Shown piece after piece: positions 1-16,695 of a stretch of 64,000 nucleotides of DNA. This stretch comes from Desulfomonilia bacterium. GTDB taxonomy: Bacteria; Desulfobacterota; Desulfomonilia; UBA1062. The position numbers and the translations under genes were made by a program. The first letter of the stretch is position 1; each line of letters begins with the position of its first letter. The stretch covers positions 864,001 to 928,000 of the forward strand of contig CAXXDQ010000003.1 of assembly GCA_963664325.2 (NCBI GenBank). Direction: 5' to 3'. Below the pieces are notes generated by a model. The model was not told the DNA's origin and searched no databases. It saw only the letters and a list, made by a program, of their open reading frames with translations.

Positions 1-277
1 CAAAAATGTAAAGCTCTTCGAAATCAGGTCTCAACAGCGGCTCTCCGCCGGTGAATCTTACCTTCATACATCCGAGCCTTTCGGCCTGAATGAGTATCTC
101 CTTTATTTGTGCGGTGCCCATCTCGCTGTCTTTGGCCCTTCTGTCGTTTGCTGGTAGATTGATGCAGCAGTGGATGCAGTCGTTGTTGCACCTTTCGGTC
201 AGTTCTATATCAAGACTGCCTAACTTTGGGGCAATCGGCTTATACATTCCTTTTATCTGCCTGATATATTCGCTCAT
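1..277 (-). CDS. Radical SAM protein, N-terminal part only (runs off the window edge; missing from the ORF track)
   Basis: Manual translation from ATG at 277: MSEYIRQIKGMYKPIAPKLGSLDIELTERCNNDCIHCCINLPANDRRAKDSEMGTAQIKEILIQAERLGCMKVRFTGGEPLLRPDFEELYIF. It has the CxxxCxxC motif and GGEPLLR, and clearly parallels the N-terminus of 487..2508. Confidence 0.9.
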   Translation of the reverse strand, partial: MSEYIRQIKGMYKPIAPKLGSLDIELTERCNNDCIHCCINLPANDRRAKDSEMGTAQIKEILIQAERLGCMKVRFTGGEPLLRPDFEELYIF

Positions 278-293
278 AGTTGTTATTGTAATA

Positions 294-467
294 TTAACTC
301 AATAGAATTTCACTGCATGTATCACAAGCTTGGTAACACACCCCGCTTTCATCTGCGGGTGAACTTATCGGCTCAACCCCTTTACAGGATGCCAGTGCCA
401 TCTCTTCATGATTGCTCCGCACAAGTATGGTCAGTTCAGGTTTTTGCCATTCCTTTTTCTCTTCCAT
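294..467 (-). CDS. Putative RiPP precursor peptide, 57 aa (below the ORF-track cutoff)
   Basis: Manual translation: MEEKKEWQKPELTILVRSNHEEMALASCKGVEPISSPADESGVCYQACDTCSEILLS*. It has a WxxPxL leader motif, 4 Cys and a C-terminal Ser, and fills the gap between two co-oriented radical SAM genes (19 nt and 16 nt spacers). Confidence 0.8.
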   Translation of the reverse strand: MEEKKEWQKPELTILVRSNHEEMALASCKGVEPISSPADESGVCYQACDTCSEILLS

Positions 468-486
468 CACTATTCTCGTTTTAAAA

Positions 487-2508
487 TTATTTTACACGCG
501 CAGAAATCAGCATCTTTTCAATTTTTTCAACAATTACAGCTGACTTGTCAAAGTGCATTGTGAAGCATGGGATCTCATTTACTATCTGCTCCAGTACATC
601 GAGTTCCTTTCGCCACCATTCGGCAGTTACCATTGGCCGTATAAGCGTTGCGAGAAGCCCTTTCCATACTGCCTTTTTATCGGAGAGAGGTTCGATTTTG
701 TTTTTTGTGTCCTGTTTCAGAAAAAGGATCGCCTTTAGCGGAGCTGTTGAAGGAGATACATCTGCCGTAGTGCCGTGGCTCCATGTGCCGTGGACACGCC
801 AGCCTTCAGGCCATTTTCTTATGACATTCCTGTCGTCGCAAAGGATCTCGGCATTCAATCCGCTTTCTTTCCTGGCCGCCTTCAGTATTTCCATTGCCGT
901 TGACTTTCCCGCCTCGGAATGACCGACAAATACCAGGCCATGGCCGTTTATAATGGCGGCAGCCGAGTGTATGAGCACGGCGTTTCTGTCTGCAAGCAAG
1001 GGCCCAAGCCATATCTGGTCGGTCGGAAAGAGCGAGAGGGATTGAAATCCGGTATCTATTGTTCGCTCTTCGTCTCGTGGCGGGCTGTAGATTGTGGCAT
1101 GGGTATGGTCTGAATTGAATACAGCCACACGGTGCAGGCTGGGATCTTCGGGCCGGGGTGAGATGCCGAGATAATAGAACGCCCCGTTCTTTTCCGAGAT
1201 GGCCCATGGCGGCTTGCGGTAGATTTCCCGGCCAAGGTCTTTGCCGGTGAGGTCGGGAAGTTCGAAGTGGTGTCTTAATGTTACATTGTCATCGCCGGGT
1301 CCTGACACCTCGAATGCCTTCAGTTCTTCCTTGATTTTTATTATACTTAAATCAAGATCGCTTTCAATACGTACCGTGATGCCTGCAATCTGAAAATATT
1401 TTCTATGATTTTTCTTCCACATGGTCTTGAATTTCTGCGCTTCCTTCGCAACCTCACACAGATAAGGTACAGGTGCCGAAAACCTGCCTGTTTCAAGATA
1501 GGAATAAACCGCGCACCAGCGGCAGTCGGAACGATTGTCACACGAGCCGCAATTGTTGCGCCATTCCTCGCCTCCCCGAACCTTATCTGCGCAGGACGGG
1601 ATGAAAGCATCCCAGGCCTCTTTGAATGACCCTTTACGAATGTCATACCTCAAGGCAGGGTCTTTTATGAAGCTGCACCAGGACATCCCTCCATAGGGGT
1701 CGATATGAAAATCCCGGCGGCCTTCAATGCACCTGGCAAACAAACGGTCATCTCCGGGGGCGACAGATCCGCAGGCCGGATCATCTACTGCATTGTCATT
1801 CAATTCAGTTGTACGTTCATAATGCGAAAGATCTGGTTTGTCGAGTTCTATCACGTCACAGGGCTTAAGACGCTGACATGCAATTTCATGATTTCTCTCA
1901 GGGGAACCGCTGGATGACAGGTAGAGCCAGGGGGCACCGACACGCCAGTGTTTGCTGAGATGTTTCGCGAGTTCGATCATCTTATTCCACTGATGCCAAT
2001 TGGCGGCCATTGGAATGAGCTGGACTATAAAACCTGCACCTGCTTTCTTGAGATACGAAAAGCCCTGCATGACCTGTTCGAATCCGTGAGGATTGCCTGT
2101 AACATCCTCATATACCTTCGGGTCCGCTCCATAGAGGGCTATCATTTTACTGCCCTTGCGGGTAAGAAGACGGGCGATTTCATGGGTGATCAGCGTGCCG
2201 TTGGTGTTTATTGTGTATCCTATGGATTTGTTTGTTATGTAGTCGAATATATCGGCAAAATCCGGCCTGAGCATGGGCTCGCCGCCTGAAATTCCCCATT
2301 TCCTGCAGCCCATGCTTCGGGCTTCATCGATAATCCGCCTTATATTGTCAAAAGACATTTCTTCATTTTTCTCAGGGGAGTCCGCCGGAATCCTGAGCCA
2401 GCAGTGCCGGCACCGGTTGTTGCAGCGGTAGGTAAGATCTATATTCCCTTCAAGCGGGAGACGGGGCATGTATGAACACTTTCTTGATATATATGTCTTA
2501 TTATTCAT
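487..2508 (-). CDS. Radical SAM/SPASM protein fused to a C-terminal HprK-related P-loop kinase domain
   Basis: CNNRCRHC and GGEPMLR; SPASM cysteines (CIEG...SWC, CGSCDNRSDCRWC...YLC); C-terminal LIHSAA...GHSEAGKST (Walker A) and ILCDDR, typical of HPr kinase-like proteins. Confidence 0.85.
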   Translation of the reverse strand: MNNKTYISRKCSYMPRLPLEGNIDLTYRCNNRCRHCWLRIPADSPEKNEEMSFDNIRRIIDEARSMGCRKWGISGGEPMLRPDFADIFDYITNKSIGYTINTNGTLITHEIARLLTRKGSKMIALYGADPKVYEDVTGNPHGFEQVMQGFSYLKKAGAGFIVQLIPMAANWHQWNKMIELAKHLSKHWRVGAPWLYLSSSGSPERNHEIACQRLKPCDVIELDKPDLSHYERTTELNDNAVDDPACGSVAPGDDRLFARCIEGRRDFHIDPYGGMSWCSFIKDPALRYDIRKGSFKEAWDAFIPSCADKVRGGEEWRNNCGSCDNRSDCRWCAVYSYLETGRFSAPVPYLCEVAKEAQKFKTMWKKNHRKYFQIAGITVRIESDLDLSIIKIKEELKAFEVSGPGDDNVTLRHHFELPDLTGKDLGREIYRKPPWAISEKNGAFYYLGISPRPEDPSLHRVAVFNSDHTHATIYSPPRDEERTIDTGFQSLSLFPTDQIWLGPLLADRNAVLIHSAAAIINGHGLVFVGHSEAGKSTAMEILKAARKESGLNAEILCDDRNVIRKWPEGWRVHGTWSHGTTADVSPSTAPLKAILFLKQDTKNKIEPLSDKKAVWKGLLATLIRPMVTAEWWRKELDVLEQIVNEIPCFTMHFDKSAVIVEKIEKMLISARVK

Positions 2509-2884
2509 TTAATAATTTCATATATATTATTTTGTATTTATCAATAAGATTTATAGGCCAACGAATAAAAATGGTATGAAACAAGTATTCAACGTGATAC
2601 TTGAATCATATGCTGAAATCCCCCCGGTTACATATATGAATCTTCCCGGTATAGATATAGGAATATCAGCCCTTGAACCTGTTGTTTAGAATTGTTTTAA
2701 GATAGGTCATACTTCGGAACAGGGCGGTTATGATGTCATGGCCCGATCCATCAAATTTTTAAAATAATGCTAGAAAATATCAATGTGCTATAAAAGCATT
2801 ATATCAAGAGGGCTTGTCTTGTAGGCATATACTGCTATTATTAAAATATTATATAATTGTTTATTCAATTTGTGAGGGACGGAT

Positions 2885-4366
2885 ATGAAAAAATTGATCC
2901 TGCTTGTTTCAGTTCTGTTTGCCGGTTGTGTTCCTGCTGCAGTAAATGACGGAAAAGAACCGCCGGCCAACCAGTATCTTGCCGATTCACCATGGAATAT
3001 GACTCACCGGAATCCCTACTGCCAGGCGTCTTCCCCATATCCCGGACCGGACAAAGGCATAAGCGGCAAGGATTACATAATCGGGACGCCCGGCTGTATC
3101 ACCATGCCCATTTCAGGAAAATATCCTGACGGCAGCCGTGTCGTGTGGGGCAACAACCTGACAAATGTCTTCAAGCTGGGCACGAAAAACAACAAGTTAT
3201 CCGAGATCGATGAAATAAAAAAAGACTCAAGCGGCAGCGGAGACGGCGGCCTCGTCGAGAAGGGAATATCAGGTGCATATACTCTTATTGACAGGGACGG
3301 GGTGTTTTTCGTGCCCGATATGACAAGGATATTTGCATACTGCGATTCAGTAACGGGCGACCCGGGGTCAAAGATCAAAATAAAGGGTGTTTACAGCATT
3401 CCTGCCGGGTATCTGCATGGAGGTACGGATAAAATTGTCGGCCTTGTCATGACATATGACGGCATGCTCGTATTTGCAACGAACACGGGATTGATAGGTG
3501 CAGTTTCGCGAGGCTTCGACAGGGCATATTTCCTTTATCTCGGTGAGGATGATGAGTTGTCCAATTCAATTGCCTGCGATGAACAGGGTGGTATCTATGT
3601 CGTAACGAGCAGGAAGATGTACCGTGTCCAATGGACGGGGGCAGAGCTTACGACCGATGAAGCAAAAGGGGGCTGGACTGCCGATTATGAAACAGGCAGT
3701 GACCAGTCGGGGATTCGCCTCGGCAAGGGCTCAGGCACAACCCCGACACTTATGGGCGTGGGCAGACAGGACAGGTTTGTAGCCATAACCGACGGGAGTG
3801 AACTCATGAACATGGTTTTGTTCTGGCGTGATAAGATTCCTGAAGGCTGGCAACAGATTCCAGGTACAAAAGACAGGAGGATTGCAGCGCAGGTGCCGGT
3901 AAGGTTCGGCGACTCTGATGCGAAGCATTCGCAGACGGACCAGTCTCTGTGTGTCCGCGGTTACGGTGCCGTTGTTGTCAACAATGAACTCGGTGCAGAT
4001 CTTGGCAGCCGGACGCTCAACATCATTATTTCCGGGGTCCCAGGCATAGCACCCAAGGGCATTGAAAAATTCGAATGGAATCCTGAAACAAGGACGCTCT
4101 CATCTGTCTGGGCAAACAGGCAGATATCGATACCCAACGGCATACCCTGCATGAGCGCCGCAACCGGCCTTTGCTATGCAATCGGAAAGCGAGGCATATT
4201 CTGGACGCTCGAGGCTCTTGACTGGAATACAGGAGAATCTGTTTTTTATTCAAACATAGGAATAGGCCTTCAATACAACAGCGCATATGCAGCGACGCAG
4301 GTAGGGCTTGAAGGTTGCATATACTCCGGAACGGCAATCGGGCTTGTAAATCTCAGGCCTGAATAA
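2885..4366 (+). CDS. Lipoprotein of unknown function, probably beta-propeller-like
   Basis: 493-aa ORF; lipobox LFAGC; GAGGGA RBS; beta-rich, Gly/Asp/Trp-rich composition. Confidence 0.6.
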   Translation: MKKLILLVSVLFAGCVPAAVNDGKEPPANQYLADSPWNMTHRNPYCQASSPYPGPDKGISGKDYIIGTPGCITMPISGKYPDGSRVVWGNNLTNVFKLGTKNNKLSEIDEIKKDSSGSGDGGLVEKGISGAYTLIDRDGVFFVPDMTRIFAYCDSVTGDPGSKIKIKGVYSIPAGYLHGGTDKIVGLVMTYDGMLVFATNTGLIGAVSRGFDRAYFLYLGEDDELSNSIACDEQGGIYVVTSRKMYRVQWTGAELTTDEAKGGWTADYETGSDQSGIRLGKGSGTTPTLMGVGRQDRFVAITDGSELMNMVLFWRDKIPEGWQQIPGTKDRRIAAQVPVRFGDSDAKHSQTDQSLCVRGYGAVVVNNELGADLGSRTLNIIISGVPGIAPKGIEKFEWNPETRTLSSVWANRQISIPNGIPCMSAATGLCYAIGKRGIFWTLEALDWNTGESVFYSNIGIGLQYNSAYAATQVGLEGCIYSGTAIGLVNLRPE

Positions 4367-4429
4367 TATAGTTCAATTTAAAAACTCTGCGGCAGGTGAT
4401 CCTGTCATAACATGGCTTGGAGGTTGGGG

Positions 4430-6064
4430 ATGAGGAATGTAAGGGTAACTGGTTGTATTCCGGTTTTTATTCTGCTGCTGGCCGTTGCTGTTGCCGGATG
4501 CAATGTTTCCGGAAAGGTTACCGAAGCGGGCACTGGCATTGCCGGCCTTGCCGTGAAATTGAGCGGAGACAAAACCGCAAGCACAGTAACCGATGCCCAG
4601 GGCAATTATAAGTTTTCAGTCGGCTATGGGAGTTATACCGTAATCCCGGGCCCTGACGGGGGTGAGGTTTTCTTGCCTGCCGCCAGACAGGTCTATGTGA
4701 GAAGCTTTGGAGGGGCAAAAGCCGATTTTTCAAGGCTAAGCGATAACAACGTTTACTGGGACCCGTCGCTTGTGGTGCCGATCCAGTCACATCCTGATAT
4801 TCGTGGATTCAAAGTAATCAGGGGCCTGATCCATATGCACTCGATATATTCGCATGACGCGTGCGACAACAAACCTTTCATTGACGGCAAGCCCAACACG
4901 GAATGCCTTTGCCAGCTTCGCGAGGCTGTTTGCACGACCAATCAGCAGTTTGTGATGATGTCCGACCATTCCGACAATTTCGCATGGCATGAATTCCCCG
5001 ATGTATTGCTCTATCAGCCCGAAGAAGGTGACGAACTGGTCTATAAGGATGGCAGGCCGGTAGCGAATATAATCAAATGCGACTGCGGAAACAATACAAT
5101 AATAACTGCCGGAAGCGAAAACAACCTCATGCCCATAGGGCTCAAAAGGATGCCTGACGGCACTCCTGAAGAGCGGAACACGTTATTTAGGAGTACGAGT
5201 GTAGATACGGTGGATAAACTTCATGCATTAGGCGCCATGGTTTTTGTTACACACCCGGAAAGCTGGATAACTTCAGATCTGCTTGACCTGCCGATAGACG
5301 GCATCGACGTCTACAACCTGCATGCTAATATTGATCCCGGCATCAGAGAGGATTATTTAGGGCTTCCATCCCTTGGATTTATTCCGGGCATACTGGATAT
5401 GCTTACACCTTCATGGGCCGATGCCCACCCGGACCTTTTGCTGCTGAGTTTTCTTGAAGAATTGAAGCCCGATCTTACCCATTGGGACAAGCTCCTTTAC
5501 TATCGCCACACGACCGGTTTTATGGCAACGGATGCCCACCGGAATTCCCTGCCTTTCCTTCTTCCGGACGGAGACAGGGGTGACAGCTACCGCCGTATGA
5601 TGAGATGGTTTGCCAACTATGTCCTTGTAACGGACCGGGGTCTTGAAGAAATAGAAAACGCCGTCTATAAAGGCCGCATGTATGGTGCTTTCCAGGTGTT
5701 CGGTGAGCCGGTCGGATTTGATTTTTATGCCGAAGCAGGTAGCCAAACCTTTGAAATGGGAGATAATGTATCTTTGGCCGAGTCTCCCGTACTGCATATA
5801 AAAGCCCCCGAATTTTTCAGAATGGATCCTAGCCTCGATAAACCCGAACTGAGGATCAGCCTTATAAAGGCAGGTCAGGACGGAGGAACGGTGGTGGCAG
5901 GGAGTCTGAATTCAGACCTTGCTTACGCTGTGACCGAAAAAGGTGCATATAGAGCTGAAATCAGGATTGTTCCCTACCATCTCAGGAAATGGCTTGGAGA
6001 CCATACCAAACCGTTTATAAAGGAGTACCCCTTTATTTATGCAAACCCTATTTTTATAAATTGA
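4430..6064 (+). CDS. Lipoprotein with carboxypeptidase-regulatory-like (Ig-like) domain and PHP-fold metallohydrolase domain
   Basis: GGAGG at 4419-4423 supports ATG 4430; lipobox VAGC; SGKVT...TVTDAQGNYKF; PHP motifs HMHSIYSHD, SDH, THP, TDAH. Confidence 0.7.
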   Translation: MRNVRVTGCIPVFILLLAVAVAGCNVSGKVTEAGTGIAGLAVKLSGDKTASTVTDAQGNYKFSVGYGSYTVIPGPDGGEVFLPAARQVYVRSFGGAKADFSRLSDNNVYWDPSLVVPIQSHPDIRGFKVIRGLIHMHSIYSHDACDNKPFIDGKPNTECLCQLREAVCTTNQQFVMMSDHSDNFAWHEFPDVLLYQPEEGDELVYKDGRPVANIIKCDCGNNTIITAGSENNLMPIGLKRMPDGTPEERNTLFRSTSVDTVDKLHALGAMVFVTHPESWITSDLLDLPIDGIDVYNLHANIDPGIREDYLGLPSLGFIPGILDMLTPSWADAHPDLLLLSFLEELKPDLTHWDKLLYYRHTTGFMATDAHRNSLPFLLPDGDRGDSYRRMMRWFANYVLVTDRGLEEIENAVYKGRMYGAFQVFGEPVGFDFYAEAGSQTFEMGDNVSLAESPVLHIKAPEFFRMDPSLDKPELRISLIKAGQDGGTVVAGSLNSDLAYAVTEKGAYRAEIRIVPYHLRKWLGDHTKPFIKEYPFIYANPIFIN

Positions 6065-6245: not shown

Positions 6246-7337
6246 ATGGATCCTTCTGAAGCGGCTGTAACTCCTTTCAAAATTGATGAAATCCTCAGGA
6301 GAATGGTAGATTCAAAAGCCTCCGACCTTCATCTTGTAGTGGGTTCTCCGCCCAATGCCCGTATAGACGGCAAGCTTGTTTCGCTTTCGGAGTACGGTAT
6401 TATAAATAATGAAATGCTCAAGGAGGCCCTTTATTCTGTGATTTCAGATGAACAGAAAAAGGCATTTGAAAAAAACAGGGAACTTGATTTTTCCTACAGT
6501 ATGCCCAAGATTTCACGTTTCAGAGGGAACATGCTCTACCAGCGCAATACTCTTGGCGCAGTATTCCGTGCAATTCCTGCTAACCCGCCTACGATCGAGG
6601 AATTGAATCTTCCTGCGATAATCACAACGCTGAGCAAAAAACCCCGTGGACTCGTCCTCGTAACGGGCCCGACCGGGAGCGGCAAGTCAACGACATTAGC
6701 ATCCATGGTGGATTATATAAACAGGACAAGGGCCGAACATATCGTAACCATAGAAGACCCGATAGAGTTTTTGCATAAAAACCAGAAAAGCATAATAAGA
6801 CAGAGAGAACTTGGAAGCGATACGCTTTCTTTCGAAGAAGCATTAAAGCATGTTCTCAGGCAGGACCCCGATGTTATTCTCGTAGGCGAAATGAGGGACC
6901 TGGAAACCATATCACTGGCAGTAACTTCGGCCGAAACAGGACATCTTGTCTTCGCAACACTGCATACAACTAGCGCAGCTTCGACAATTGACAGGATCAT
7001 TGACGTATTTCCTCCGGGTCAGCAGGCCCAGATCAGAATGCAACTGTCCACCACACTGGAAGGGATCATCTGTCAGACGCTTGTGCCAAAAAAGGAAGGT
7101 AAGGGGAGGGCATGCGCAATGGAGATCCTTGTTGGTACAATGGGTGTCAGAAATCTGATCAGGGAAGGTAAAACGCATATGATAGTTAACATGCTGCAGG
7201 CCGGAGTAAAAGACGGCATGCAGACCCTTAACTCGGCTCTTCACAAGCTTGTCGTAAGCGGTGCAATTTCTGTGGATGATGCGCTGTTAAAGTCCAGCCA
7301 GCCTGATGAACTCAAAAACCTCCTGGGGAGGGCTTAA
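6246..7337 (+). CDS. pilT: Type IV pilus retraction ATPase PilT
   Basis: ASDLHL, GPTGSGKST, TIEDPIE, LRQDPDVILVGEMRD, TGHLVFATLHT and VRNLIRE motifs. Confidence 0.93.
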   Translation: MDPSEAAVTPFKIDEILRRMVDSKASDLHLVVGSPPNARIDGKLVSLSEYGIINNEMLKEALYSVISDEQKKAFEKNRELDFSYSMPKISRFRGNMLYQRNTLGAVFRAIPANPPTIEELNLPAIITTLSKKPRGLVLVTGPTGSGKSTTLASMVDYINRTRAEHIVTIEDPIEFLHKNQKSIIRQRELGSDTLSFEEALKHVLRQDPDVILVGEMRDLETISLAVTSAETGHLVFATLHTTSAASTIDRIIDVFPPGQQAQIRMQLSTTLEGIICQTLVPKKEGKGRACAMEILVGTMGVRNLIREGKTHMIVNMLQAGVKDGMQTLNSALHKLVVSGAISVDDALLKSSQPDELKNLLGRA

Positions 7338-7501
7338 ACAGTAATTTAAGCCAGGCAATGCAGCCTAATGCATATCCCTCCGGAAACAACCTGCCATAAA
7401 GCATGACGTGATCAGCCTGTATGAGGGCTCATGCAGCCCTGTATATGAAGATTTCCGGATGTCATGTTAAATGATACAATAAAATGCCAAGAAAACCTTA
7501 T

Positions 7502-7519
7502 TGATACAATATTGAATCA
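7502..7519. promoter_or_regulatory. Imperfect palindrome, candidate enhancer-binding-protein site upstream of the amtB sigma-54 promoter
   Basis: TGATACAAT-ATTGAATCA (1 mismatch); a second TGATACAAT half-site lies at 7472-7480. Confidence 0.45.
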
Positions 7520-7570
7520 TATAAATCGATAAATAATAAATATATGTAATAAATCAAACCAGTTATAACG

Positions 7571-7586
7571 TGGCATAGCTCTTGCT
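7571..7586 (+). promoter_or_regulatory. Sigma-54 (-24/-12) promoter of the amtB-glnK operon
   Basis: TGGCAT-AGCTC-TTGCT matches TGGCAC-N5-TTGCW, about 40 nt before the amtB ATG. Confidence 0.8.
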
Positions 7587-7625
7587 GTTATTAGTCTGAC
7601 AAAACAACAAAGGGAGGAAACAGTT

Positions 7626-9198
<1,573 letters not shown>

Positions 9199-9204
9199 TC
9201 ATGA

Positions 9205-9240
9205 CAGGGACGGAATCGGGATTCAATCCTTCCGTCCCTG
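9205..9240 (+). terminator. Stem-loop between glnK and the second P-II gene
   Basis: CAGGGACGGAA ... TTCCGTCCCTG perfect 11-bp stem followed by CTTT. Confidence 0.6.
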
Positions 9241-9273
9241 CTTTAACAAACAGCAAAGGAGCAAAGATAACTC

Positions 9274-9612
9274 ATGAAGAGAATTGAAGCTGTGATTCGT
9301 CCTGATAAGGTTGAAAATGTATGTGAAACATTGAATAAATCGGGGCAAAAAGGGGTCATGCTTTCACTTATTGAGGACAGGAGCACGAACGATCATTTAA
9401 AGGCCCTGGTCAGGGGAAATTATTACAATATCGATACGATGATGGCAAAAATAGAGGTGACGGTAAAGGATGGCGAAGCAGCCATGGTGGCTGACTTAAT
9501 CAGAGAAGCTGCATCTACAGGCACAATCGGTGACGGTGAAATATTTATCCATCCTGTTGATGATACAATGATAGTCAGCACCGGTTTGTGGTCCGGCAGG
9601 AGGACAAGATAG
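9274..9612 (+). CDS. Divergent P-II family protein
   Basis: MKRIEAVIRP, KIEV and TGTIGDGEIF align with P-II; the effector-binding motifs are degenerate; AAGGAG RBS. Confidence 0.8.
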   Translation: MKRIEAVIRPDKVENVCETLNKSGQKGVMLSLIEDRSTNDHLKALVRGNYYNIDTMMAKIEVTVKDGEAAMVADLIREAASTGTIGDGEIFIHPVDDTMIVSTGLWSGRRTR

Positions 9613-9762
9613 CTTCTGCAACAGATATCATTTCCCTTGGTTAATATTTTTTTCAGAAACTTTTATTACAGATTAAATATTGTCAAGTCTGAAAAACCGG
9701 CTGATGTCTTGTGAAGAGAAAGATACAAATTCGATTACAAATTTATGAGAGGAGATATTCTT

Positions 9763-11013
9763 ATGACAAAAATGAAAGTCGATCTAAAGGGGTTAATAAT
9801 TTTAGCAGCTGTTTTGCTTTTGGCAGGGCCCGTATATGCAGGGGTGGACTTTAATGTTGCCGGTGCGAAGGCGACGCTGGGGGCAAGCGTGTGGGTCGAA
9901 GCGGGATGGGATTATCAGTTCCACGGAGATGTGCCGACCGATTACACCAGCGACAAGGAGACCCAGCAGTATATAGCCATTGACGATCCCAGCAACATCA
10001 ACATGAAAGTGGAGTATAAAAATCTGAACGCCTACACTGAAATCAGGTACCACAACAGTGCTGACTATAAGATAGAGCTGTATGCAATCTACGGGGCCTA
10101 CAACTTCTCTGACGAGAATCAGATACTGTTTGGCAAGGCACCTATAGTCTTCTCGGTGATGGCCCCGAAGCAGAACCTCTATAACGCCAACTGCCTGGAC
10201 GGTTACGGCGGACTTGATCCATGGAAAAGGTCTTTACAGGTACGCTTCAGCCATAAAAGCGAAAACCTGGGCTTTGACATCGCGCTGGAGGAAGTCAAGA
10301 CCGATTCCAGTATCGAGGACAGCTATGTGGAAAACAACGAACTTGACAATGGAGAATCCTTTCAGGTTCAAAACTATTTGCCGGCGCTGGCCTTGAACCT
10401 GACATGGAAGCCATTGGATCTTCTTACAATCAATCCGAGCGGATACATTCAGCAGTACCAGCTCAAGCCGAAGGGCATAGCGGATTTAAACAACACGGAC
10501 ATCCTTACATATGCGCTTTCCCTGGGGATCGAAGCGAATCTCAAACCGGTAAATATCCAGGCGGAAGGATGGTATGGCCAGAACCTCTCCGTATTGGAAG
10601 GGATTGACGCAAGGCCGTCTTTCTTTGATCCGATATATATAGCTGAATACGATGACAACCAGTATCTGACGCTCATGGGGACACCTCAATGGGACGGCAA
10701 CAAACTAAAGGACGTCATCACATACGGAGGATGGCTGCAGATCGAGGCGCCCATCAAGAATTTCACCCCGAGGATCGGAGGCGGTTACCAGAGGTCATCA
10801 ACGGGTATAGTTGCTGAAGGTTACGAGAGGCACATCTACACATGGAGCGCTTTCGCCAACTGCGACATCAAAATAAAGGACTACCTGACGGTATGCCCCG
10901 AATTTCTTTATATGTACAACGGCAGAGACGCAGACAAGAACTTCCTGGGCACTGGCTACAACAAACTCGGCTATGAGGCAATGGGCGGCGTTACTATGAT
11001 CCTGGCGTTCTGA
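9763..11013 (+). CDS. Outer-membrane beta-barrel (porin-like) protein
   Basis: GAGGAG RBS supports ATG 9763; signal peptide ending VYA; alternating amphipathic strands; C-terminal Phe (TMILAF). Confidence 0.65.
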   Translation: MTKMKVDLKGLIILAAVLLLAGPVYAGVDFNVAGAKATLGASVWVEAGWDYQFHGDVPTDYTSDKETQQYIAIDDPSNINMKVEYKNLNAYTEIRYHNSADYKIELYAIYGAYNFSDENQILFGKAPIVFSVMAPKQNLYNANCLDGYGGLDPWKRSLQVRFSHKSENLGFDIALEEVKTDSSIEDSYVENNELDNGESFQVQNYLPALALNLTWKPLDLLTINPSGYIQQYQLKPKGIADLNNTDILTYALSLGIEANLKPVNIQAEGWYGQNLSVLEGIDARPSFFDPIYIAEYDDNQYLTLMGTPQWDGNKLKDVITYGGWLQIEAPIKNFTPRIGGGYQRSSTGIVAEGYERHIYTWSAFANCDIKIKDYLTVCPEFLYMYNGRDADKNFLGTGYNKLGYEAMGGVTMILAF

Positions 11014-11080
11014 TTACAAACGAAGATGAATTACGTAAAAATATTATCTTGATAAACAGACATAATGGATTCTAAAAAAT

Positions 11081-11123
11081 TGAGACTGGGTGGGGCGAGT
11101 GTACCAGCTCCATCCAGTCTTAA
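11081..11123. terminator. Likely bidirectional terminator between convergent genes
   Basis: AGACTGGGTGGGGC ... GCTCCATCCAGTCT stem flanked by A- and T-rich tracts. Confidence 0.6.
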
Positions 11124-11190
11124 ATTGCTCTTTTTATAACATGTAGTTTTTTTGCCGGCGGCATATATTACATTCTGAGGTGAGGACCTT

Positions 11191-11781
11191 TTAGAGCAGG
11201 GAAAAAGCCTGTGCTATTTCAAGGCTCAATTTTCCAAGAGCGCTGCTCATGGCTGCAACATAATCGTTATATTCAAAACCCTTAACGTCAGATGTGATTA
11301 ATGACTTTTTAACCAGTATTGTTTTTTTCGTATCTTTATCAATTATAATCCAGCTTGCCTTTAATGTTACGCTTTTGCCGAGATTTCCATCGAACTGCTG
11401 TATGTCAACAACCAGCTGGTATGCAGAATCAATCCTCCGGCCGAGTTCATATGGTATAACCGTCTGAGATGGAAGAAGAACAGCGAGATTTTCAGTCAGA
11501 GTCCTTACAAGGCTGTCATTCAGGCTGCCGGCCCACCGGTCATATTCGGATATGATTACTGTGTTGCCGCCTGATAATATGGCGATCTGAGGCCTGTTGA
11601 GTACTACGGGAATAGTGATCGGGCCGACGCTGATGGTTCTATTTTGAGCAGGCAATTTTAAAGCCTGGATATCTTTAGCCGAGGAAGGGCTCAGCCTGTA
11701 AAATCTCGACGGTTGCGAAAAGCCGCATCCATTGGTGCTTATCATGAATATGATTAATAAAATGAAAACAAGTTTCTTCAT
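11191..11781 (-). CDS. PqiC-family ABC transport auxiliary lipoprotein
   Basis: Lipobox TNGC; SRFYRL, VGPITIP..LNRPQI, RWAGSL; last gene of an MlaE/F/D-type operon. Confidence 0.85.
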   Translation of the reverse strand: MKKLVFILLIIFMISTNGCGFSQPSRFYRLSPSSAKDIQALKLPAQNRTISVGPITIPVVLNRPQIAILSGGNTVIISEYDRWAGSLNDSLVRTLTENLAVLLPSQTVIPYELGRRIDSAYQLVVDIQQFDGNLGKSVTLKASWIIIDKDTKKTILVKKSLITSDVKGFEYNDYVAAMSSALGKLSLEIAQAFSLL

Positions 11782-12791
11782 TTATCTTCTCCTTTCATTT
11801 TTTCCTTGCCTCTCAGAATGGATTCGGGATGGCGTTCGAGATAGTCTGCCAGTGATTTCATGGAAGCGGCAATCTCGTTGAATTCTCTCAGGGTGTCTTC
11901 AGCCTGGAAGGAAACCTCTGTGTTTTCGGACATGAAACGGTTAATCGTTGCAAGGCTTTCATCAACCTTTTTCAGGGTATCCTGCGCCTTTTCAATCGTC
12001 TGTTTCGCATCCGCTGCTATCTGCCCGGGTGCTCCTTCTTCGAGTGCAAGCGTTTTCTGAGCCTGTACCATTGTCTGCCGAGCTGCCTGAGAGGTCTCTT
12101 TAATATCTGCAAGCAGCGGGATAATTTGAGCATCCATTTTCTGCAGAAGTTCATGTGCGGACTTGCCGGCAGCCATGTATGATTTGAGGCCTTCTTTGGT
12201 TTCGGGCGCATTTATAAAGCCTTCAATCCCATCTATCGTTTTAAGAAGTTTCTTTGCAGTTTCTTTAAGGTTGAGATCCTGAAGCGCCTGGGTGAAGAGT
12301 TCAAGCTGGGTCGGTATGGTCGGGATCTCCTGATATTCAGTCAGATAATGGTGGTATTCGGGTTTCATATCAGGGAAGAAATCCAGAATGATTATAAGCT
12401 GCGAGGTAACGATGCTCTGCATGGTAAGCTGGGCCTTAAGTCCCTTTCTTATGAAGATCGAAATCTCATCAGGGGTCCCCACAAGTTTCTTCCTGGTATC
12501 AAGGCTCATTACCGAATCCGGTTCGATTTCAATTATGACCACGCTGTGAAGCGTCTGATCATATTTCGTGTAAAATAGTTTTATGTTTTTTACGGACCCG
12601 ATCTGTACACCCCTGTAAAAAACACCGGCCCCTGGATTAAGCCCTCTGATGGACTCATCGAAATAAAGTGCGTACGGATAGCGCTGTTTGAAAAAATCGG
12701 CCCCGGTCAAGATGATTACTGTAATAAGCATCAGGCCTATCGCACCTATAACAAACAACCCGATCAGTTTGAAATTAGCCCTCTTGCTCAT
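11778..12791 (-). CDS. MlaD/MCE-family protein
   Basis: IGLFV N-terminal TM helix; FDESIRGLNPGAGVFYRGVQIGSV MCE motif; C-terminal YLERHPESILRG. Confidence 0.9.
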   Translation of the reverse strand: MSKRANFKLIGLFVIGAIGLMLITVIILTGADFFKQRYPYALYFDESIRGLNPGAGVFYRGVQIGSVKNIKLFYTKYDQTLHSVVIIEIEPDSVMSLDTRKKLVGTPDEISIFIRKGLKAQLTMQSIVTSQLIIILDFFPDMKPEYHHYLTEYQEIPTIPTQLELFTQALQDLNLKETAKKLLKTIDGIEGFINAPETKEGLKSYMAAGKSAHELLQKMDAQIIPLLADIKETSQAARQTMVQAQKTLALEEGAPGQIAADAKQTIEKAQDTLKKVDESLATINRFMSENTEVSFQAEDTLREFNEIAASMKSLADYLERHPESILRGKEKMKGEDK

Positions 12792-12818
12792 GATAATGCT
12801 CCTTTGGCAGAGTTAAAT

Positions 12819-13616
12819 TCATTGTAACTCCTCACATACCACCTCTGAAATAGTCATGCTCTCGGCCCGTGTCAGAAAACTCCTGACAGTAAGATTTGTC
12901 GATTCTTCAAGCAATTTCTTTGGGTTTCCGTGAGCAATCATGGTCTTTGTTGCCGCATCCAGAAATACGGAGTTGGTACCTATGGTAAAGATGCTTGGCA
13001 GTTCGTGCGTCACTACTACAATTGTTGTTCCCAGGCTGTCCCTTATCTGGAGTATCAGTTCATCCAGCAGCCTCGAACTTACCGGATCAAGTCCCGCGGA
13101 AGGCTCATCAAAAAACAGTATCTGAGGGTCCAGCGCCATCGCACGTGCGAGACCTGCCCGTTTTTTCATGCCTCCGCTGAGTTCGGAGGGATAATATTCA
13201 CCGAAGCCCTTTAGCCCTACAAGTGCAAGTTTGAGTGATACAATTTCATTTATTTCCTTTTTTGTGAGCTGTGTATACTCTTCCAGAGGTAATGCGATGT
13301 TCTCTGAGAGCGTCATGGAACTCCAAAGCGCACTGCTCTGGTAAAGTATCCCGAAAGACTTCATGATGCTCTCCTGTTCCTCGGGACTGCTTTTATAAAA
13401 ATCGATGCCATTATAATAAATTTTTCCCTGTTCCGGGGTTCTGAGACCGATCATATATTTCAGCAGGGTGCTTTTTCCGCACCCGCTTCCACCCATTATT
13501 ATAAAAATATCGCTCCTGTTTACGCTGAAGTTCAGATTGCTCTGGAGTACATAATCCCCGTATGCCATGGTCAGGTTTTTTACCGTTATATGTTCCTTCG
13601 GGGATTCGGCCTGCAT
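12819..13616 (-). CDS. ABC transporter ATP-binding protein (MlaF/Mkl family)
   Basis: GGSGCGKST, LSGGMKKRAGLARA, FFDEPSAGLDP and VVVTH motifs. Confidence 0.92.
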   Translation of the reverse strand: MQAESPKEHITVKNLTMAYGDYVLQSNLNFSVNRSDIFIIMGGSGCGKSTLLKYMIGLRTPEQGKIYYNGIDFYKSSPEEQESIMKSFGILYQSSALWSSMTLSENIALPLEEYTQLTKKEINEIVSLKLALVGLKGFGEYYPSELSGGMKKRAGLARAMALDPQILFFDEPSAGLDPVSSRLLDELILQIRDSLGTTIVVVTHELPSIFTIGTNSVFLDAATKTMIAHGNPKKLLEESTNLTVRSFLTRAESMTISEVVCEELQ

Positions 13617-13618
13617 TC

Positions 13619-14749
13619 TTATATCCCCAGGACGGCACAGATGTATGTAATGAAGGCGGTTGCCATGACAACGCTGACAATCCCTGTTACAACTGCCGAT
13701 GTGGTCGATTCGCCGACAGAGGCGGCACTTCTTTCACAGTGAAGCCCTTTGTAGCAGCCTGTAGTTGCAATAAGGAAGCCGAATACCGTGCTCATGATAA
13801 GCCCGATCCACAGGTCTTTGAATCTGATGGCGTTTATGGTCTGGTTATAATAACTTGTAAAACTGATATCGAACATCGAGGTCCCGACAATAAACCCCCC
13901 GAGTATACCGATGAAATTCGCATAAAGGGTTAAAAGCGGCATGGCTATTGTCAGGGCGATTACCCTCGGCAGAACAAGGAACTCTACAGGAGATATGCCC
14001 AGTGTCCTCAAGGCGTCGATCTCTTCATTGGTCTCCATTGTACCGAGGTGCGCAGCATATGAGGCGCCTGTCCTGCCTGCCATTATTATTCCGGTCATTA
14101 TTGCTCCCATTGAGCGCACAATCCCTATGCCGACCATGTTTGCAATGTATATCTGGGCTCCGAAGAGTTTGAGCTGGATTGATCCCACAAAGGCCAGAAT
14201 AAGACCTATAAGCAGGCTTATGAGCGATACGATCGGAAGGGCGTCAATACTGCATTCCTGAATTATGACGAAAAAATCCCTTGCCCTGAAACGGGCCATT
14301 CCTGCAAAGAATCTGCCGAATGAAACGGTCAACTCACCTGCAAAGATGAAAAAATCTCCGATAGAGCTCCAGAAACCATAAGATTTGTTTCCCAGTAATT
14401 CAAGAAAGGGAATCCTGGTGTCGGCATGTCTGGCATCTGTTCTTTCCGGGACCGCCAGAGCGAGTTTTATCAGGCCTGCAATCTCATGGGGAAGGCTTTC
14501 CTGACTGGTTGCAATTCCCAGCTTGTGAGAATATTCCAGTATGTTTATGATAAAGGCTATCAGTGCGCTGTCCCAGCCGGTAACGCCGGACAGATCAAAG
14601 CTCAGGCTGGTGAAAGGTTTCTGCGCATCAAGCTGTTTTATAATGGCAGAGGAGTCTTGAATCCCGGAAATGCCTTTCCATTCACCCGATAGCGACAGAA
14701 CAAGCGAGTCGTCCGAGCCTTTTTTCATTTCGCAACTGTTATTAGTCAT
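13619..14749 (-). CDS. MlaE-family ABC permease with N-terminal STAS-like domain
   Basis: AGRTGASYAAHLGTMETNEEIDAL, LVLPRV and VGESTTSAVV motifs. Confidence 0.92.
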   Translation of the reverse strand: MTNNSCEMKKGSDDSLVLSLSGEWKGISGIQDSSAIIKQLDAQKPFTSLSFDLSGVTGWDSALIAFIINILEYSHKLGIATSQESLPHEIAGLIKLALAVPERTDARHADTRIPFLELLGNKSYGFWSSIGDFFIFAGELTVSFGRFFAGMARFRARDFFVIIQECSIDALPIVSLISLLIGLILAFVGSIQLKLFGAQIYIANMVGIGIVRSMGAIMTGIIMAGRTGASYAAHLGTMETNEEIDALRTLGISPVEFLVLPRVIALTIAMPLLTLYANFIGILGGFIVGTSMFDISFTSYYNQTINAIRFKDLWIGLIMSTVFGFLIATTGCYKGLHCERSAASVGESTTSAVVTGIVSVVMATAFITYICAVLGI

Positions 14750-15026: not shown

Positions 15027-16661
15027 ATGAAAAGCAAACGGTACATCCTATTAGCCACCATAGTCCTTTTAATGGCAGCCGGCTGCCGGATATCCGGCAC
15101 GGTCACCCAGGATGGACAGGGCGTGGCCGGCGTGACCGTAGTCCTGATGGGACCGGTCGAGCAAACGGCGATAACCGACAGTTCAGGCCAATATGTCTTT
15201 TCTTATCTCGGGGCGGGCTCATATATTATTGGTGTAGATGAATGCCCGACCCTGCCCGAGCGCCAGGAGGTTAATAAATCCCATCTTTTTGAAAACGTGG
15301 ATGGGATCGATTTCGAGAAAGAAGCGGCGGGCCCGATGGCCAGCTTTGACCTGCGAAATATCGGGGCCGTCACCCCTGTAAAAATTCAGAAGGGGGGCAC
15401 ATGCTGGACGCATGCGACCATGGCCGCCATCGAGAGCAACATGCTGATGAATGATGTCTGGCGGGTTGCCGGAGAAGAAGGTGTCCCGAATCTGGCCGAA
15501 TATCATCTCGACTGGTGGAACGGTTTTAACCAGAACAACAATGACGACCTGTCACCCCCTGAGGGGAGCGGTCTCGAGGTACATATGGGGGGTGATTATC
15601 GCGTTGCCTCCGCCTATATCACACGGGGGGAAGGCGTGGTGCGCAATATTGACGCCCAATCCTACATCTTTGCCCCGCCACGTCGTTCTTCGAAATATCA
15701 TTACTTCTATGTTCCCGATATCGAATGGTTTGTCCTGCAGCCGAACCTGAGTAACATTGATCAATTCAAGCAGACCATTATGGACAACGGAGCGGTGGCG
15801 ACCTGCCTGTGCTCTGACAGCTCCTTCATTGACAAGCGTTATACCCATTATCAGCCCCCTTACAGCGATATGGATCCTAACCATGGTGTGGCTATTGTGG
15901 GCTGGAATGATTACAAGATAACCAGGGCCCCCGAGCGGGGAGCCTGGTTATGCAAGAACAGCTGGAGCGAGTTTCTCCAGATCAAGGGTTACTTCTGGAT
16001 TTCCTACTATGACAAGCATGCCGGCCATGATCCGGAGATGGGGGCCGTGGCGTTCAGGGGTGTTGAACCCATGCCCTATGACAGTATTTATTACCATGAC
16101 TATCACGGCTGGCGGGATACCCTGACTGACTGCAGCGAGGCGATGAACGCATTTAAGGCCAGCAGGGCGGAATACCTGAAAGCGGTCAGTTTTGCAACTG
16201 CCGCAGATGACGTCGAGTTCAAGGTGGCCGTGTACGACGGATTCGAAGGCGGCCAGCCCGCTGGCCTGCTTGGCACAGTCGAAGGGACCATCAGCCACAC
16301 AGGGTTTCATACCGTAGATCTGCCGGCCCCGATCGTCTTGAGCCCCGGGGATGATTTTTATATCTATGTCAAGCTTTCGCATGGCGGGCATCCCATTGAC
16401 CGTACATCGCTGGTACGTGTGCTTCTGGACGGTCCCCGATTTACGCTAGACCCCAATGAGGACTGGCATGACCCCTATTATTACTATGACAACCTCGACA
16501 CTGCTGAAGTTGCCACTTTGGTGGAGTCGTCCGCCCAGCCGGGCCAGAGCTATTATCTTAATAACGGGGAATGGCTCGACCTGTACTACCGCGATCTGGG
16601 AGAATATTCAGGCACAGCCAATTTCTGCATCAAGGGTCTGGCTGTCATGGAGGCGGATTGA
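15027..16661 (+). CDS. Lipoprotein papain-family (C1) cysteine peptidase with N-terminal Ig-like and C-terminal lectin-like domains
   Basis: Lipobox AAGC; FDLR, QKGGTCW (catalytic Cys), NHGVAIVGW (His), KNSW (Asn), GYFWISY; ends NFCIKG. Confidence 0.85.
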   Translation: MKSKRYILLATIVLLMAAGCRISGTVTQDGQGVAGVTVVLMGPVEQTAITDSSGQYVFSYLGAGSYIIGVDECPTLPERQEVNKSHLFENVDGIDFEKEAAGPMASFDLRNIGAVTPVKIQKGGTCWTHATMAAIESNMLMNDVWRVAGEEGVPNLAEYHLDWWNGFNQNNNDDLSPPEGSGLEVHMGGDYRVASAYITRGEGVVRNIDAQSYIFAPPRRSSKYHYFYVPDIEWFVLQPNLSNIDQFKQTIMDNGAVATCLCSDSSFIDKRYTHYQPPYSDMDPNHGVAIVGWNDYKITRAPERGAWLCKNSWSEFLQIKGYFWISYYDKHAGHDPEMGAVAFRGVEPMPYDSIYYHDYHGWRDTLTDCSEAMNAFKASRAEYLKAVSFATAADDVEFKVAVYDGFEGGQPAGLLGTVEGTISHTGFHTVDLPAPIVLSPGDDFYIYVKLSHGGHPIDRTSLVRVLLDGPRFTLDPNEDWHDPYYYYDNLDTAEVATLVESSAQPGQSYYLNNGEWLDLYYRDLGEYSGTANFCIKGLAVMEAD

Positions 16662-16695
16662 CGGGTGTATCTCGGGTGTATATTTAGGAGGTTTC

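Follow-up and report, generated by a model that had tools for sequence, protein, structure and literature searches.

A cassette with three radical-SAM/SPASM enzymes, one of them fused to a ScmC/HprK-like domain, and its predicted role in the production of modified peptides in a Desulfomonilia bacterium

The first 2,508 nucleotides of a 64,000-nucleotide stretch from the genome of a Desulfomonilia bacterium (contig CAXXDQ010000003.1; G000:C3:864001-928000; hereinafter, the window) contain three minus-strand genes, separated by gaps of 16 bases each, that appear to form one end of a cassette for peptides that are made on the ribosome and then modified post-translationally (RiPPs). In the order of transcription, these genes encode a 673-residue fusion of a radical S-adenosylmethionine (rSAM)/SPASM enzyme with a P-loop domain (487-2508), a small cysteine-rich precursor peptide denoted A1 (294-470; 58 residues from a GTG codon or 57 residues from the ATG at 467), and a second rSAM/SPASM enzyme, of which the first 92 codons are in the window (feature 1..277, with the open reading frame (ORF) 2-277 open at the window edge). 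An earlier interpretation of the window (the sequence-only reading) reported these three closely packed genes, in agreement with the ORF listing, and proposed that they represented the 5' end of an undescribed RiPP cluster. The present analysis covers a longer stretch that includes the DNA to the left of the window (L003; window position equals L003 position minus 15000), in which the fusion and A1 occupy positions 15487-17508 and 15294-15470, respectively.

The N-terminal half of the fusion protein (residues 1-368; 1405..2508, minus strand) matches the Radical_SAM family (PF04055, E 1.5e-24) and contains a CX3CX2C motif at residues 29-36 and a SPASM-type CX2CX5CX2C block at residues 320-332; C29, C33, C36, C260, C278, C320, C323, C329, C332, and C351 are invariant across 38 full-length homologues of the fusion. 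The AlphaFold2 (AF2) model of the full-length protein has a predicted local distance difference test score (pLDDT) of 87.2 and a predicted template modeling score (pTM) of 0.79, and the solved structures nearest to this model in Foldseek are those of PqqE (6c8v, E 3.8e-11), SuiB, MoaA, BlsE, SkfB, CteB, and anSME. None of the NCBIfam models comes near its cut-off with this protein, the top one being AhbD (107.5 vs 500 bits). The true start is likely Met14 (position 2469), which is the start of the 660-residue public gene call (P0002); residues 1-12 are modeled with pLDDT <50, and neither of the two starts is preceded by a clear ribosome-binding site.

The fusion's C-terminal part (residues 369-673 and the stop codon; 487..1404, minus strand) is a P-loop, kinase-like domain for which the nearest named family is ScmC. 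The ScmC model TIGR04249 matches it with E 9.7e-8 and 31.7 bits (cut-off 125), the model of HprK-related kinase B matches with E 0.0034, also below its cut-off, and the fusion protein carries the precomputed label PF27840 (named ScmC in the Atlas). When the domain was compared using hhalign with ten proteins scoring above the ScmC cut-off, a probability of 99.0% was obtained (E 3.4e-18, 203 columns), and the P-loop and the C-D-D motif coincided in the alignment with these true ScmC proteins. Three motifs, G-H-S-x-x-G-K-S-T, L-C-D-D-R, and G-T-W-S-H-G, are invariant in the alignment of 29 domains. The AF2 model of the domain (pLDDT 91.3) matches phosphoenolpyruvate carboxykinase (PEPCK) in Foldseek (E 2.7e-7), with a superposition (VIA) of 239 aligned residues at Z 12.4 and rmsd 5.9, and also matches the HprK/P protein of L. 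casei (1kkl_B, E 5.3e-6, TMt 0.48); a search of the domain profile against the PDB chain sequences yielded nothing beyond the P-loop segments of ABC transporters (best E 2.4e-4) and is uninformative with regard to the fold. The modeled fold is PEPCK/HprK-like, and the description of this gene in the sequence-only reading as an rSAM/SPASM-HprK-like fusion stands, the label 'HprK-like' being justified in terms of fold and superfamily.

The second rSAM/SPASM gene, which had been noted to run off the window edge, is complete in the longer stretch (L003 14114-15277, minus strand, 387 residues); PF04055 matches the fragment in the window with E 2.4e-11 and the full protein with E 2.6e-22, and the protein is 37% identical to rSAM no. 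3 and 29% identical to the fused rSAM. The entire cassette spans about 10.4 kb (L003 7158-17508), with window positions 1-2508 at its promoter-proximal end. On the minus strand, the three genes described above are followed by precursor A2, of the same leader family (13882-14058), a discrete PqqD protein (13556-13855; PF05402, E 4.6e-14, 52.9 bits), a third rSAM/SPASM enzyme (12434-13546; PF04055 and, at 21.9 bits, SPASM PF13186, with AhbD as the top NCBIfam row at 101.5 bits), and a further precursor (12045-12233). Beyond the latter, there are plus-strand genes for a SipW-type peptidase-GNAT fusion (10823-11881, 352 residues), a broken precursor (10592-10726), and an intact precursor (10333-10527), and then, again on the minus strand, genes for an MsbA-like ABC exporter (8371-10242; ABC_membrane and ABC_tran, TIGR02204 278 bits) and a PF14907 nucleotidyltransferase (7158-8420; E 2.3e-26, 93.3 bits); the next gene, carA, is unrelated to the cassette. 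The broken precursor has lost the leader Trp and stops earlier than the intact counterpart in another locus (L008 5850-6056), which continues beyond that stop to a Cys-rich end. The prediction that a PqqD-type protein, an S24-type peptidase, a nucleotidyltransferase, and an ABC exporter lie to the left of the window proved accurate for all four, and the third rSAM/SPASM enzyme and three more intact precursors in that region go beyond what had been forecast.

In the peptidase-GNAT fusion, a Peptidase_S24/archaeal-type signal peptidase I domain (Peptidase_S24 24.5 bits, cut-off 23.3; best NCBIfam row TIGR02228, E 6e-11, 42.4 bits, cut-off 51.85) precedes the GNAT domain (PF00583, E 2.5e-15). The peptidase domain contains the motifs G-F-S-M-H-P, V-H-R-I-V, and G-D-N, which we take to be the Ser/His boxes of SipW-type peptidases. 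The fusion with GNAT is not universal: in several loci of the standalone type discussed below (L034, L037, L038, and L043), only the peptidase part matches, and in L042 (12412-14127 and 14147-14587), a GNAT-like stretch follows the third rSAM gene. The first cluster motif is located at residues 29-33 in all three rSAM enzymes, which leaves no room for an N-terminal RiPP recognition element (RRE) in any of them and therefore fits a dependence on the separate PqqD protein.

The fusion and the cassette around it are widespread. At least 120 homologues of the fusion were found (own protein included), all at least 61% identical and nearly all covering 96-100% of its length, and PF27840 is carried by 117 of the 120 listed, own included. 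A genome scan yielded 39 loci from metagenome-assembled genomes (MAGs) of Thermodesulfobacteriota, Acidobacteriota, Myxococcota, Chloroflexota, Planctomycetota, Synergistota, Spirochaetota, Bacillota, Actinomycetota, and a Methanolinea archaeon. In a tblastn search with the cluster proteins, PqqD was detected in 29 of the 39 loci, the S24-type peptidase in 20, and the PF14907-like protein in 10; 11 of the 39 are contigs shorter than 8 kb. The order in most loci is ScmC-like gene, rSAM no. 2, precursor(s), PqqD, peptidase, rSAM no. 3, ABC pump, PF14907. The archaeal fused cassette (L019, 7120-15054), with four precursors, differs in gene order (PqqD, peptidase, rSAM no. 3, fusion, rSAM no. 2), and its domain groups among the bacterial copies in the tree of the kinase-like domain, which suggests transfer between the domains of life.

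The P-loop domain resides in one frame behind an rSAM core motif in 22 of the 39 loci; six more fused loci are cut by contig ends or frameshifted (L008, L026, L031, L039, L040, and L041). In 10 loci (L029, L030, L032-L035, L037, L038, L042, and L043), the domain is a standalone protein of about 300 residues accompanied by only two rSAM genes; L036, cut at a contig end, was counted as standalone. When 1.84 billion representative proteins were searched with a profile of the domain, 211 clusters had E values up to 1e-30 and 2958 had E values up to 1e-10. Among the best 150 matches, 17 are at least 590 residues long (15 with an N-terminal rSAM motif), 92 are of 270-399 residues, 9 of 400-589, and 32 are fragments; given these length counts, the standalone form is more diverse than the fused one. 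The distinction between fused and standalone forms requires four changes when traced on the tree of the 29 domains, and well-supported branches force at least two of them.

The A1 peptide has the leader K-x-W-x-K-P-E-L...E-E-x-x-L-x-x-C-K, three core Cys, and a C-x5-S ending. A pattern built from the first examples was run over the genome and the 39 loci, with matches in 8 places in the genome (one of which, an obvious false match, was dropped) and in 35 places in 25 of the 39 loci, so that 42 were kept; an eighth intact genomic precursor, missed by the pattern, was recovered by tblastn. Because paralogues with the same leader are present in the genome and homologues in 25 of the 39 related loci, the A1 ORF, which the sequence-only reading had singled out as a hidden Cys-rich precursor of 57 residues, is not a chance ORF. 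Small ORFs are thus conserved next to the homologues of the fusion, a feature on which that reading had made its proposal depend.

Within this family, the leader (W-x-K-P-E-L-x-V-L-V-R...E-E-x-V-L-x-x-C-K) is near-invariant, with a constant length between W and C-K. The core is hypervariable, with two or three Cys and the C-x5-S end as its only conserved features. The 34 aligned intact precursors, with a mean column identity of 34%, share the invariant positions W7, P10, E22, L25, C28, K29, C44, C51, and S57, the last of which is the only invariant hydroxyl residue. A terminal Ser is present in 38 of the 42 pattern matches, the four others being a 40-residue truncation, a frameshifted copy, and peptides that end in Thr and in Leu, respectively; in 37 of the 42, the peptide ends exactly six residues after the last Cys. 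NCBIfam contains no family for A1, A2, or A3 beyond a weak row for the paeninodin leader (for A1, NF033524 with E 0.034 and 13.9 bits, cut-off 27), and Pfam contains none for A1. Judging by small-residue rules, candidate cleavage positions would be between C and K in L-x-x-C-K or ahead of C-K in x-[A/S/T/G]-C-K; an analogy with LppA, discussed below, would place the candidate site after E-E.

The source genome encodes eight intact precursors of this family, four in the cassette and four orphans (C2:160028-160231; C3:1033103-1033285; C5:181904-182083; C5:185575-185760). A 'precursor island' far from both this cassette and the second one described below (L004; G000:C5:178000-194000), with no maturation enzymes nearby, combines within 5 kb two orphan Trp-leader precursors and two orphan precursors with a Tyr leader and Gly/Asn/Cys repeats (features 3905-4153(-), 7576-7761(+), 7891-8229(-), and 8302-8607(-)); genes for a GT1 glycosyltransferase and a GH123-like protein adjoin it.

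The number of rSAM paralogues appears to be linked to the number of core Cys, a rule that is open to experimental test. In the source genome, where the cassette has three rSAMs, three core Cys are present in all seven pattern matches and in the eighth precursor. Among the 26 precursor matches in the other three-rSAM (fused) loci, 19 contain three Cys and six contain two, and one is a broken frame. In the two-rSAM (standalone) loci, L036 counted here, eight of the nine matches contain two Cys and the remaining one is truncated, and no three-Cys peptide was seen among the pattern matches of any two-rSAM cluster.

Among the catalogued systems, the closest is SynChlorMet, with which the cluster shares a Cys-rich precursor, a discrete PqqD protein, a paralogous rSAM/SPASM pair, and a ScmC-type P-loop protein, the ScmC-like domains of the two systems being homologous; in the SynChlorMet loci that we fetched, these are joined by genes for an S24-type peptidase, an ABC pump, and a PF14907-like protein. 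However, the scores of the cluster proteins are far below the cut-offs of the SynChlorMet models (ScmC TIGR04249, 125 bits; ScmD TIGR04248, 100; ScmE TIGR04250 and ScmF TIGR04251, 400): 31.7 bits for ScmC, 26.5 for ScmD, 86.2 at best for ScmE (rSAM no. 3), and 82.1 at best for ScmF (rSAM no. 2), with the fusion protein scoring 77.6 for ScmF and 54.4 for ScmE. The standalone P-loop relatives in other loci score 29.7-41.2 bits for ScmC, also below the cut-off, and the precursor model ScmA (TIGR04252, 35 bits) has no matches genome-wide at E up to 1 (40 candidates scored). The precursors differ as well, with the leader W-x-K-P-E-L and the C-x5-S end in the cluster vs the leader Y-E-x-P and Gly/Asn/Cys repeats in the Scm-type precursors inspected, and the cluster has a third rSAM/SPASM enzyme, the one fused to the ScmC-like domain. 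Given these sub-cut-off scores and the different precursors, the cluster of the window represents a distinct, distant sister family of SynChlorMet rather than a member.

A TIGR04249 search of 401 genomes of the phylum found matches above the cut-off in 18, including the source genome, where the match is on another contig. There, the source genome carries a second, near-canonical SynChlorMet cassette (G000:C7:475200-481100; L064 7200-13084, minus strand) that encodes a 509-residue fusion of ScmC with signal peptidase I (153.7 and 60.6 bits, both above the cut-off), proteins for which ScmE (391.7 bits), ScmF (313.6 bits), and ScmD (the PqqD protein, 54.4 bits) are each the top row and each below the cut-off, and two precursors with a Y-E-A-P leader and Gly/Asn/Cys repeats. 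Thus, Trp-leader and Tyr-leader systems coexist in this genome, each with its own PqqD.

A second group of relatives consists of the linear polyphosphorylated peptides (LPP), described from the lpp cluster of Paenibacillus alginolyticus (Popov et al., Nat Commun 2026, PMC13381572). The family labels of LPP are TIGR02228, an RRE family, TIGR04352, PF14907, and TIGR02204; the kinase LppK places several phosphates on core Ser3, and the peptidase LppS removes the leader, requires the RRE, and cuts unphosphorylated LppA poorly (PMC13381572). All five core functions are shared with the cluster of the window, namely an SpI-like peptidase, a discrete RRE, an HprK-related kinase, a PF14907 enzyme, and an MsbA-like pump, as are the kinase loop G-H-S-x-A-G-K-S-T and the leader motif [Y/W]-x-x-P-x-L, and TIGR04249 is listed in 67 neighborhoods of the LPP main cluster, which has 126 members (PMC13381572). 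In contrast, LPP clusters as described there have no rSAM enzyme (the main text makes no use of the words 'radical', 'SPASM', and 'rSAM'), their product is read as linear, the leader is of the Tyr type (Y-x-x-P-x-V-L-x-H-Q-x-I-x-F-E-T-x-x-S), and the reported hosts are Bacillota (PMC13381572), whereas the cluster of the window has three rSAM/SPASM enzymes, Cys-rich cores, a Trp leader, an invariant last Ser, and a peptidase-GNAT fusion, and clusters of this type are found mostly in anaerobes of other phyla.

The phosphorylated lasso peptides (paeninodin and pseudomycoidin) resemble the predicted system in the conserved C-terminal Ser that accompanies an HprK-like kinase, the Trp-type leader, the discrete RRE, and the PF14907-type enzyme. 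In the respective precursors, the C-terminal Ser receives a side-chain phosphate from the kinase PadeK, ThcoK, SyanK, or PsmK, and this residue is described as 'extremely conserved' wherever the gene for such a kinase is present (PMC9266682). The PsmK D158A/D159A mutant is inactive, and PsmN attaches a hexose to the phosphate (PMC6993621); the invariant D-D of the P-loop domain may be the counterpart of this aspartate pair. Unlike in lasso peptide clusters, no family match to a lasso cyclase or B2 protease was detected in the eight proteins left of the window (E up to 0.001) or in the three window proteins (E up to 0.01), and rings would come from rSAM chemistry instead. With the sacti- and ranthipeptide maturases (CteB, SkfB, AlbA, and PapB) and with PqqE/PqqD, the cluster shares the rSAM/SPASM fold, the auxiliary-cluster Cys, and Cys-rich predicted substrates, and with PqqE/PqqD also an RRE in the form of a separate protein. 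The differences are the three paralogues vs one maturase per cluster, the kinase-like fusion of one of them, and the different precursor family; the sacti-/ranthipeptide and PqqE family models are all far below their cut-offs on the cluster rSAMs (for example, StsB, AlbA, and PapB score 43-80 bits vs cut-offs of 340-850), and the type of bond is not readable from the sequence.

On this basis, the ten-gene cluster most likely makes small, cysteine-crosslinked, serine-phosphorylated peptides that would be secreted. PqqD would bind the W-x-x-P-x-L leader and present the peptide to the three RRE-less rSAM/SPASM paralogues, each of which might form one crosslink at one core Cys, most likely a thioether. 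The P-loop domain would use ATP to place a phosphate on the side chain of the C-terminal Ser, as in the paeninodin-type lasso kinases, and the PF14907 enzyme could then decorate this phosphate. The peptidase, assisted by the RRE, would cut off the leader, the fused GNAT domain would acetylate the new N-terminus, and the ABC pump would export the product. The acetylation step is suggested by the fusion of GNAT with the peptidase; N-terminal acetylation has precedents in microviridin and goadsporin. More generally, the three gene fusions, of rSAM with the ScmC-like domain, of ScmC with the peptidase in the second cassette, and of the peptidase with GNAT, argue for coupling of the respective steps. 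A structure prediction for the PqqD-A1 complex lends weak support to the leader-binding step: the score is 0.41, vs 0.01 for the best of three controls, the runs agree in at least 93% of the contacts, and the partner pLDDT is at least 50. In calibration, 157 solved complexes and 215 mismatched pairs were scored, of which 116 and 2, respectively, passed the same mark; at scores of 0.60 or below, only 18 of the 157 solved complexes passed, as did both of the passing mismatches. Given that solved RRE-leader complexes exist, the pass may stem from structures memorized by the model.

That the cluster is a RiPP cassette of this kind appears very likely, and we consider the complete account, with crosslinked and phosphorylated peptides as inferred products, reasonably probable. 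Of its two chemical components, the crosslinking of Cys by one enzyme each has in our estimate an about even chance of being correct, as does phosphorylation of the terminal Ser. Several observations weigh against this account. No NCBIfam model reaches its cut-off for the enzymes of the cluster; the resemblance of the P-loop domain to HprK/P proper is modest (the TMt value given above), and the Pfam HPr kinase model (PF07475, the C-terminal domain of HPr kinase) does not match it at E up to 1, the only match being ABC_tran at E 0.2. The precursor counts lean towards a pattern that we wrote ourselves, and the sequences are related rather than independent. The six two-Cys peptides found in three-rSAM clusters do not fit the link between enzymes and Cys, and counting one enzyme per core Cys leaves the invariant Cys of C-K without a role. 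Finally, two observations speak against the last residue as the kinase target: the LPP kinase acts on core Ser3 (PMC13381572), and a terminal Ser is present in none of the seven precursors picked by eye beside true ScmC genes (those with Y-x-x-P leaders and no ScmA match, from the second cassette and six other ScmC stretches), which rules out that the ancestral ScmC job was specific to a C-terminal Ser.

These last two observations are the strength of an alternative in which the cassette is the same but the P-loop domain acts on a Ser or Thr near the leader-core junction, licensing cleavage, or is an ATP-driven scaffold, with the C-x5-S end serving a different step, for example recognition by an rSAM enzyme or the exporter. 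Such a role would accord with the poor cleavage of unphosphorylated LppA (PMC13381572) and with the fusion of ScmC to the peptidase in the second cassette, which ties the kinase step to cleavage, and Ser, Thr, and Gly are frequent among the seven residues after C-K. However, the last Ser is invariant, which holds for none of the Ser or Thr residues near the junction, and a conserved C-terminal Ser is the hallmark of the lasso precursors that are served by HprK-like kinases (PMC9266682), so that we regard this alternative as unlikely. Still less probable is a scheme in which dehydroalanine arises by elimination from the terminal phospho-Ser and is then attacked by the Cys six residues upstream, so that a ring of constant size closes at the C-terminus. 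Such a scheme would fit the distance from the last Cys to the terminal Ser, fixed in 37 of the 42 peptides while the intervening residues vary, and the presence of a kinase-like domain. Phosphorylation, elimination, and addition constitute the logic of the class III/IV lanthipeptide synthetases, but no lyase or cyclase domain was detected in the eight neighboring proteins scanned, and the rSAM enzymes already account for the Cys. The PF14907 enzyme, in turn, implies that the phosphate is kept and decorated (PMC6993621).

Two further readings concern the nature of the pathway as a whole. The peptides could be precursors of an intracellular redox cofactor, by analogy with PqqA and MftA, which are processed by PqqE/PqqD and MftC/MftB; for the rSAMs of the cluster, the matches to PqqE and to the mycofactocin maturase are of about the same quality as those to any peptide maturase, and the cassette includes a discrete PqqD. 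The cofactor precursors PqqA and MftA keep a conserved core, however, whereas a single genome here contains eight intact precursors with hypervariable cores, and the cassette retains a dedicated ABC exporter and a leader peptidase, which makes this reading very improbable. The assignment of the rSAMs to a non-peptide pathway (alternative heme or heme d1, AhbD/NirJ), with the small ORFs present by chance, would be suggested by AhbD as the top NCBIfam row for the fusion and for rSAM no. 3, and the sequence-only reading had itself named the Ahb/NirJ models as a check. None of these models comes near its cut-off, the AhbD scores amounting to about one-fifth of the required 500 bits, the small ORFs are kept across phyla with nine invariant positions, and PqqD, the peptidase, and the exporter travel with the rSAM enzymes; we rejected this reading, the probability of which appears negligible.

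The description of the system as undescribed was too strong, given that the cassette is related to the catalogued SynChlorMet as a divergent sister and has an accessory module in common with the LPP peptides reported in 2026. NCBIfam has no model that exceeds its cut-off for the enzymes or the precursors of the cluster, but this kind of system is catalogued, the accessory module has been studied in LPP and paeninodin, and the cassette family, common in anaerobes, is partly catalogued. In a literature search, which left out most subscription journals, we came across no publication in which SPASM enzymes are linked to an HprK-like or ScmC protein and none on SynChlorMet or any product of the ScmC-like family. 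We put forward only tentatively, as a rather doubtful proposition, that the cluster represents an unnamed RiPP class in which one SPASM paralogue per core Cys is combined with a C-terminal phospho-Ser, perhaps glycosylated, two chemistries never reported together; in this proposition, the third paralogue, acquired through fusion with the kinase-like domain, and the third Cys would have arrived together, and the phospho-Ser would lie at the fixed distance of six residues from the last crosslinked Cys. If this were the case, ScmC proteins in general would be peptide kinases and SynChlorMet systems would be rSAM-bearing cousins of LPP.

The ScmC-like family is large, occurring in anaerobes of many phyla and in at least one methanogen; the analysis provides handles on it in the form of the precursor genes and their leader, with the invariant last Ser as the likely kinase target, and a connection between the SynChlorMet cassettes and the experimentally studied accessory enzymes of LPP and paeninodin. 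The presence of Trp- and Tyr-leader cassettes in one genome offers a natural test, outside Bacillota, of the discrimination between W and Y leaders that Popov et al. demonstrated in Bacillota (PMC13381572).

Upstream of the fusion gene, an AT-rich intergenic stretch (2509..2884; GC content 0.34 in window positions 2501-3000 vs 0.44-0.52 within genes) is a candidate for the promoter region of the operon, with sigma-70-like minus-strand matches at 2848-2876 (10/12) and 2755-2783 (9/12); overall, the promoter and terminator scan was not above the shuffled sequences (21 found vs 16.8 expected). On the other side of this stretch lie two divergent plus-strand ORFs (2885-4366, 493 residues, and 4412-6064, 550 residues), which were not seen adjoining the cassette in other loci and encode proteins with lipoprotein-like N-termini.

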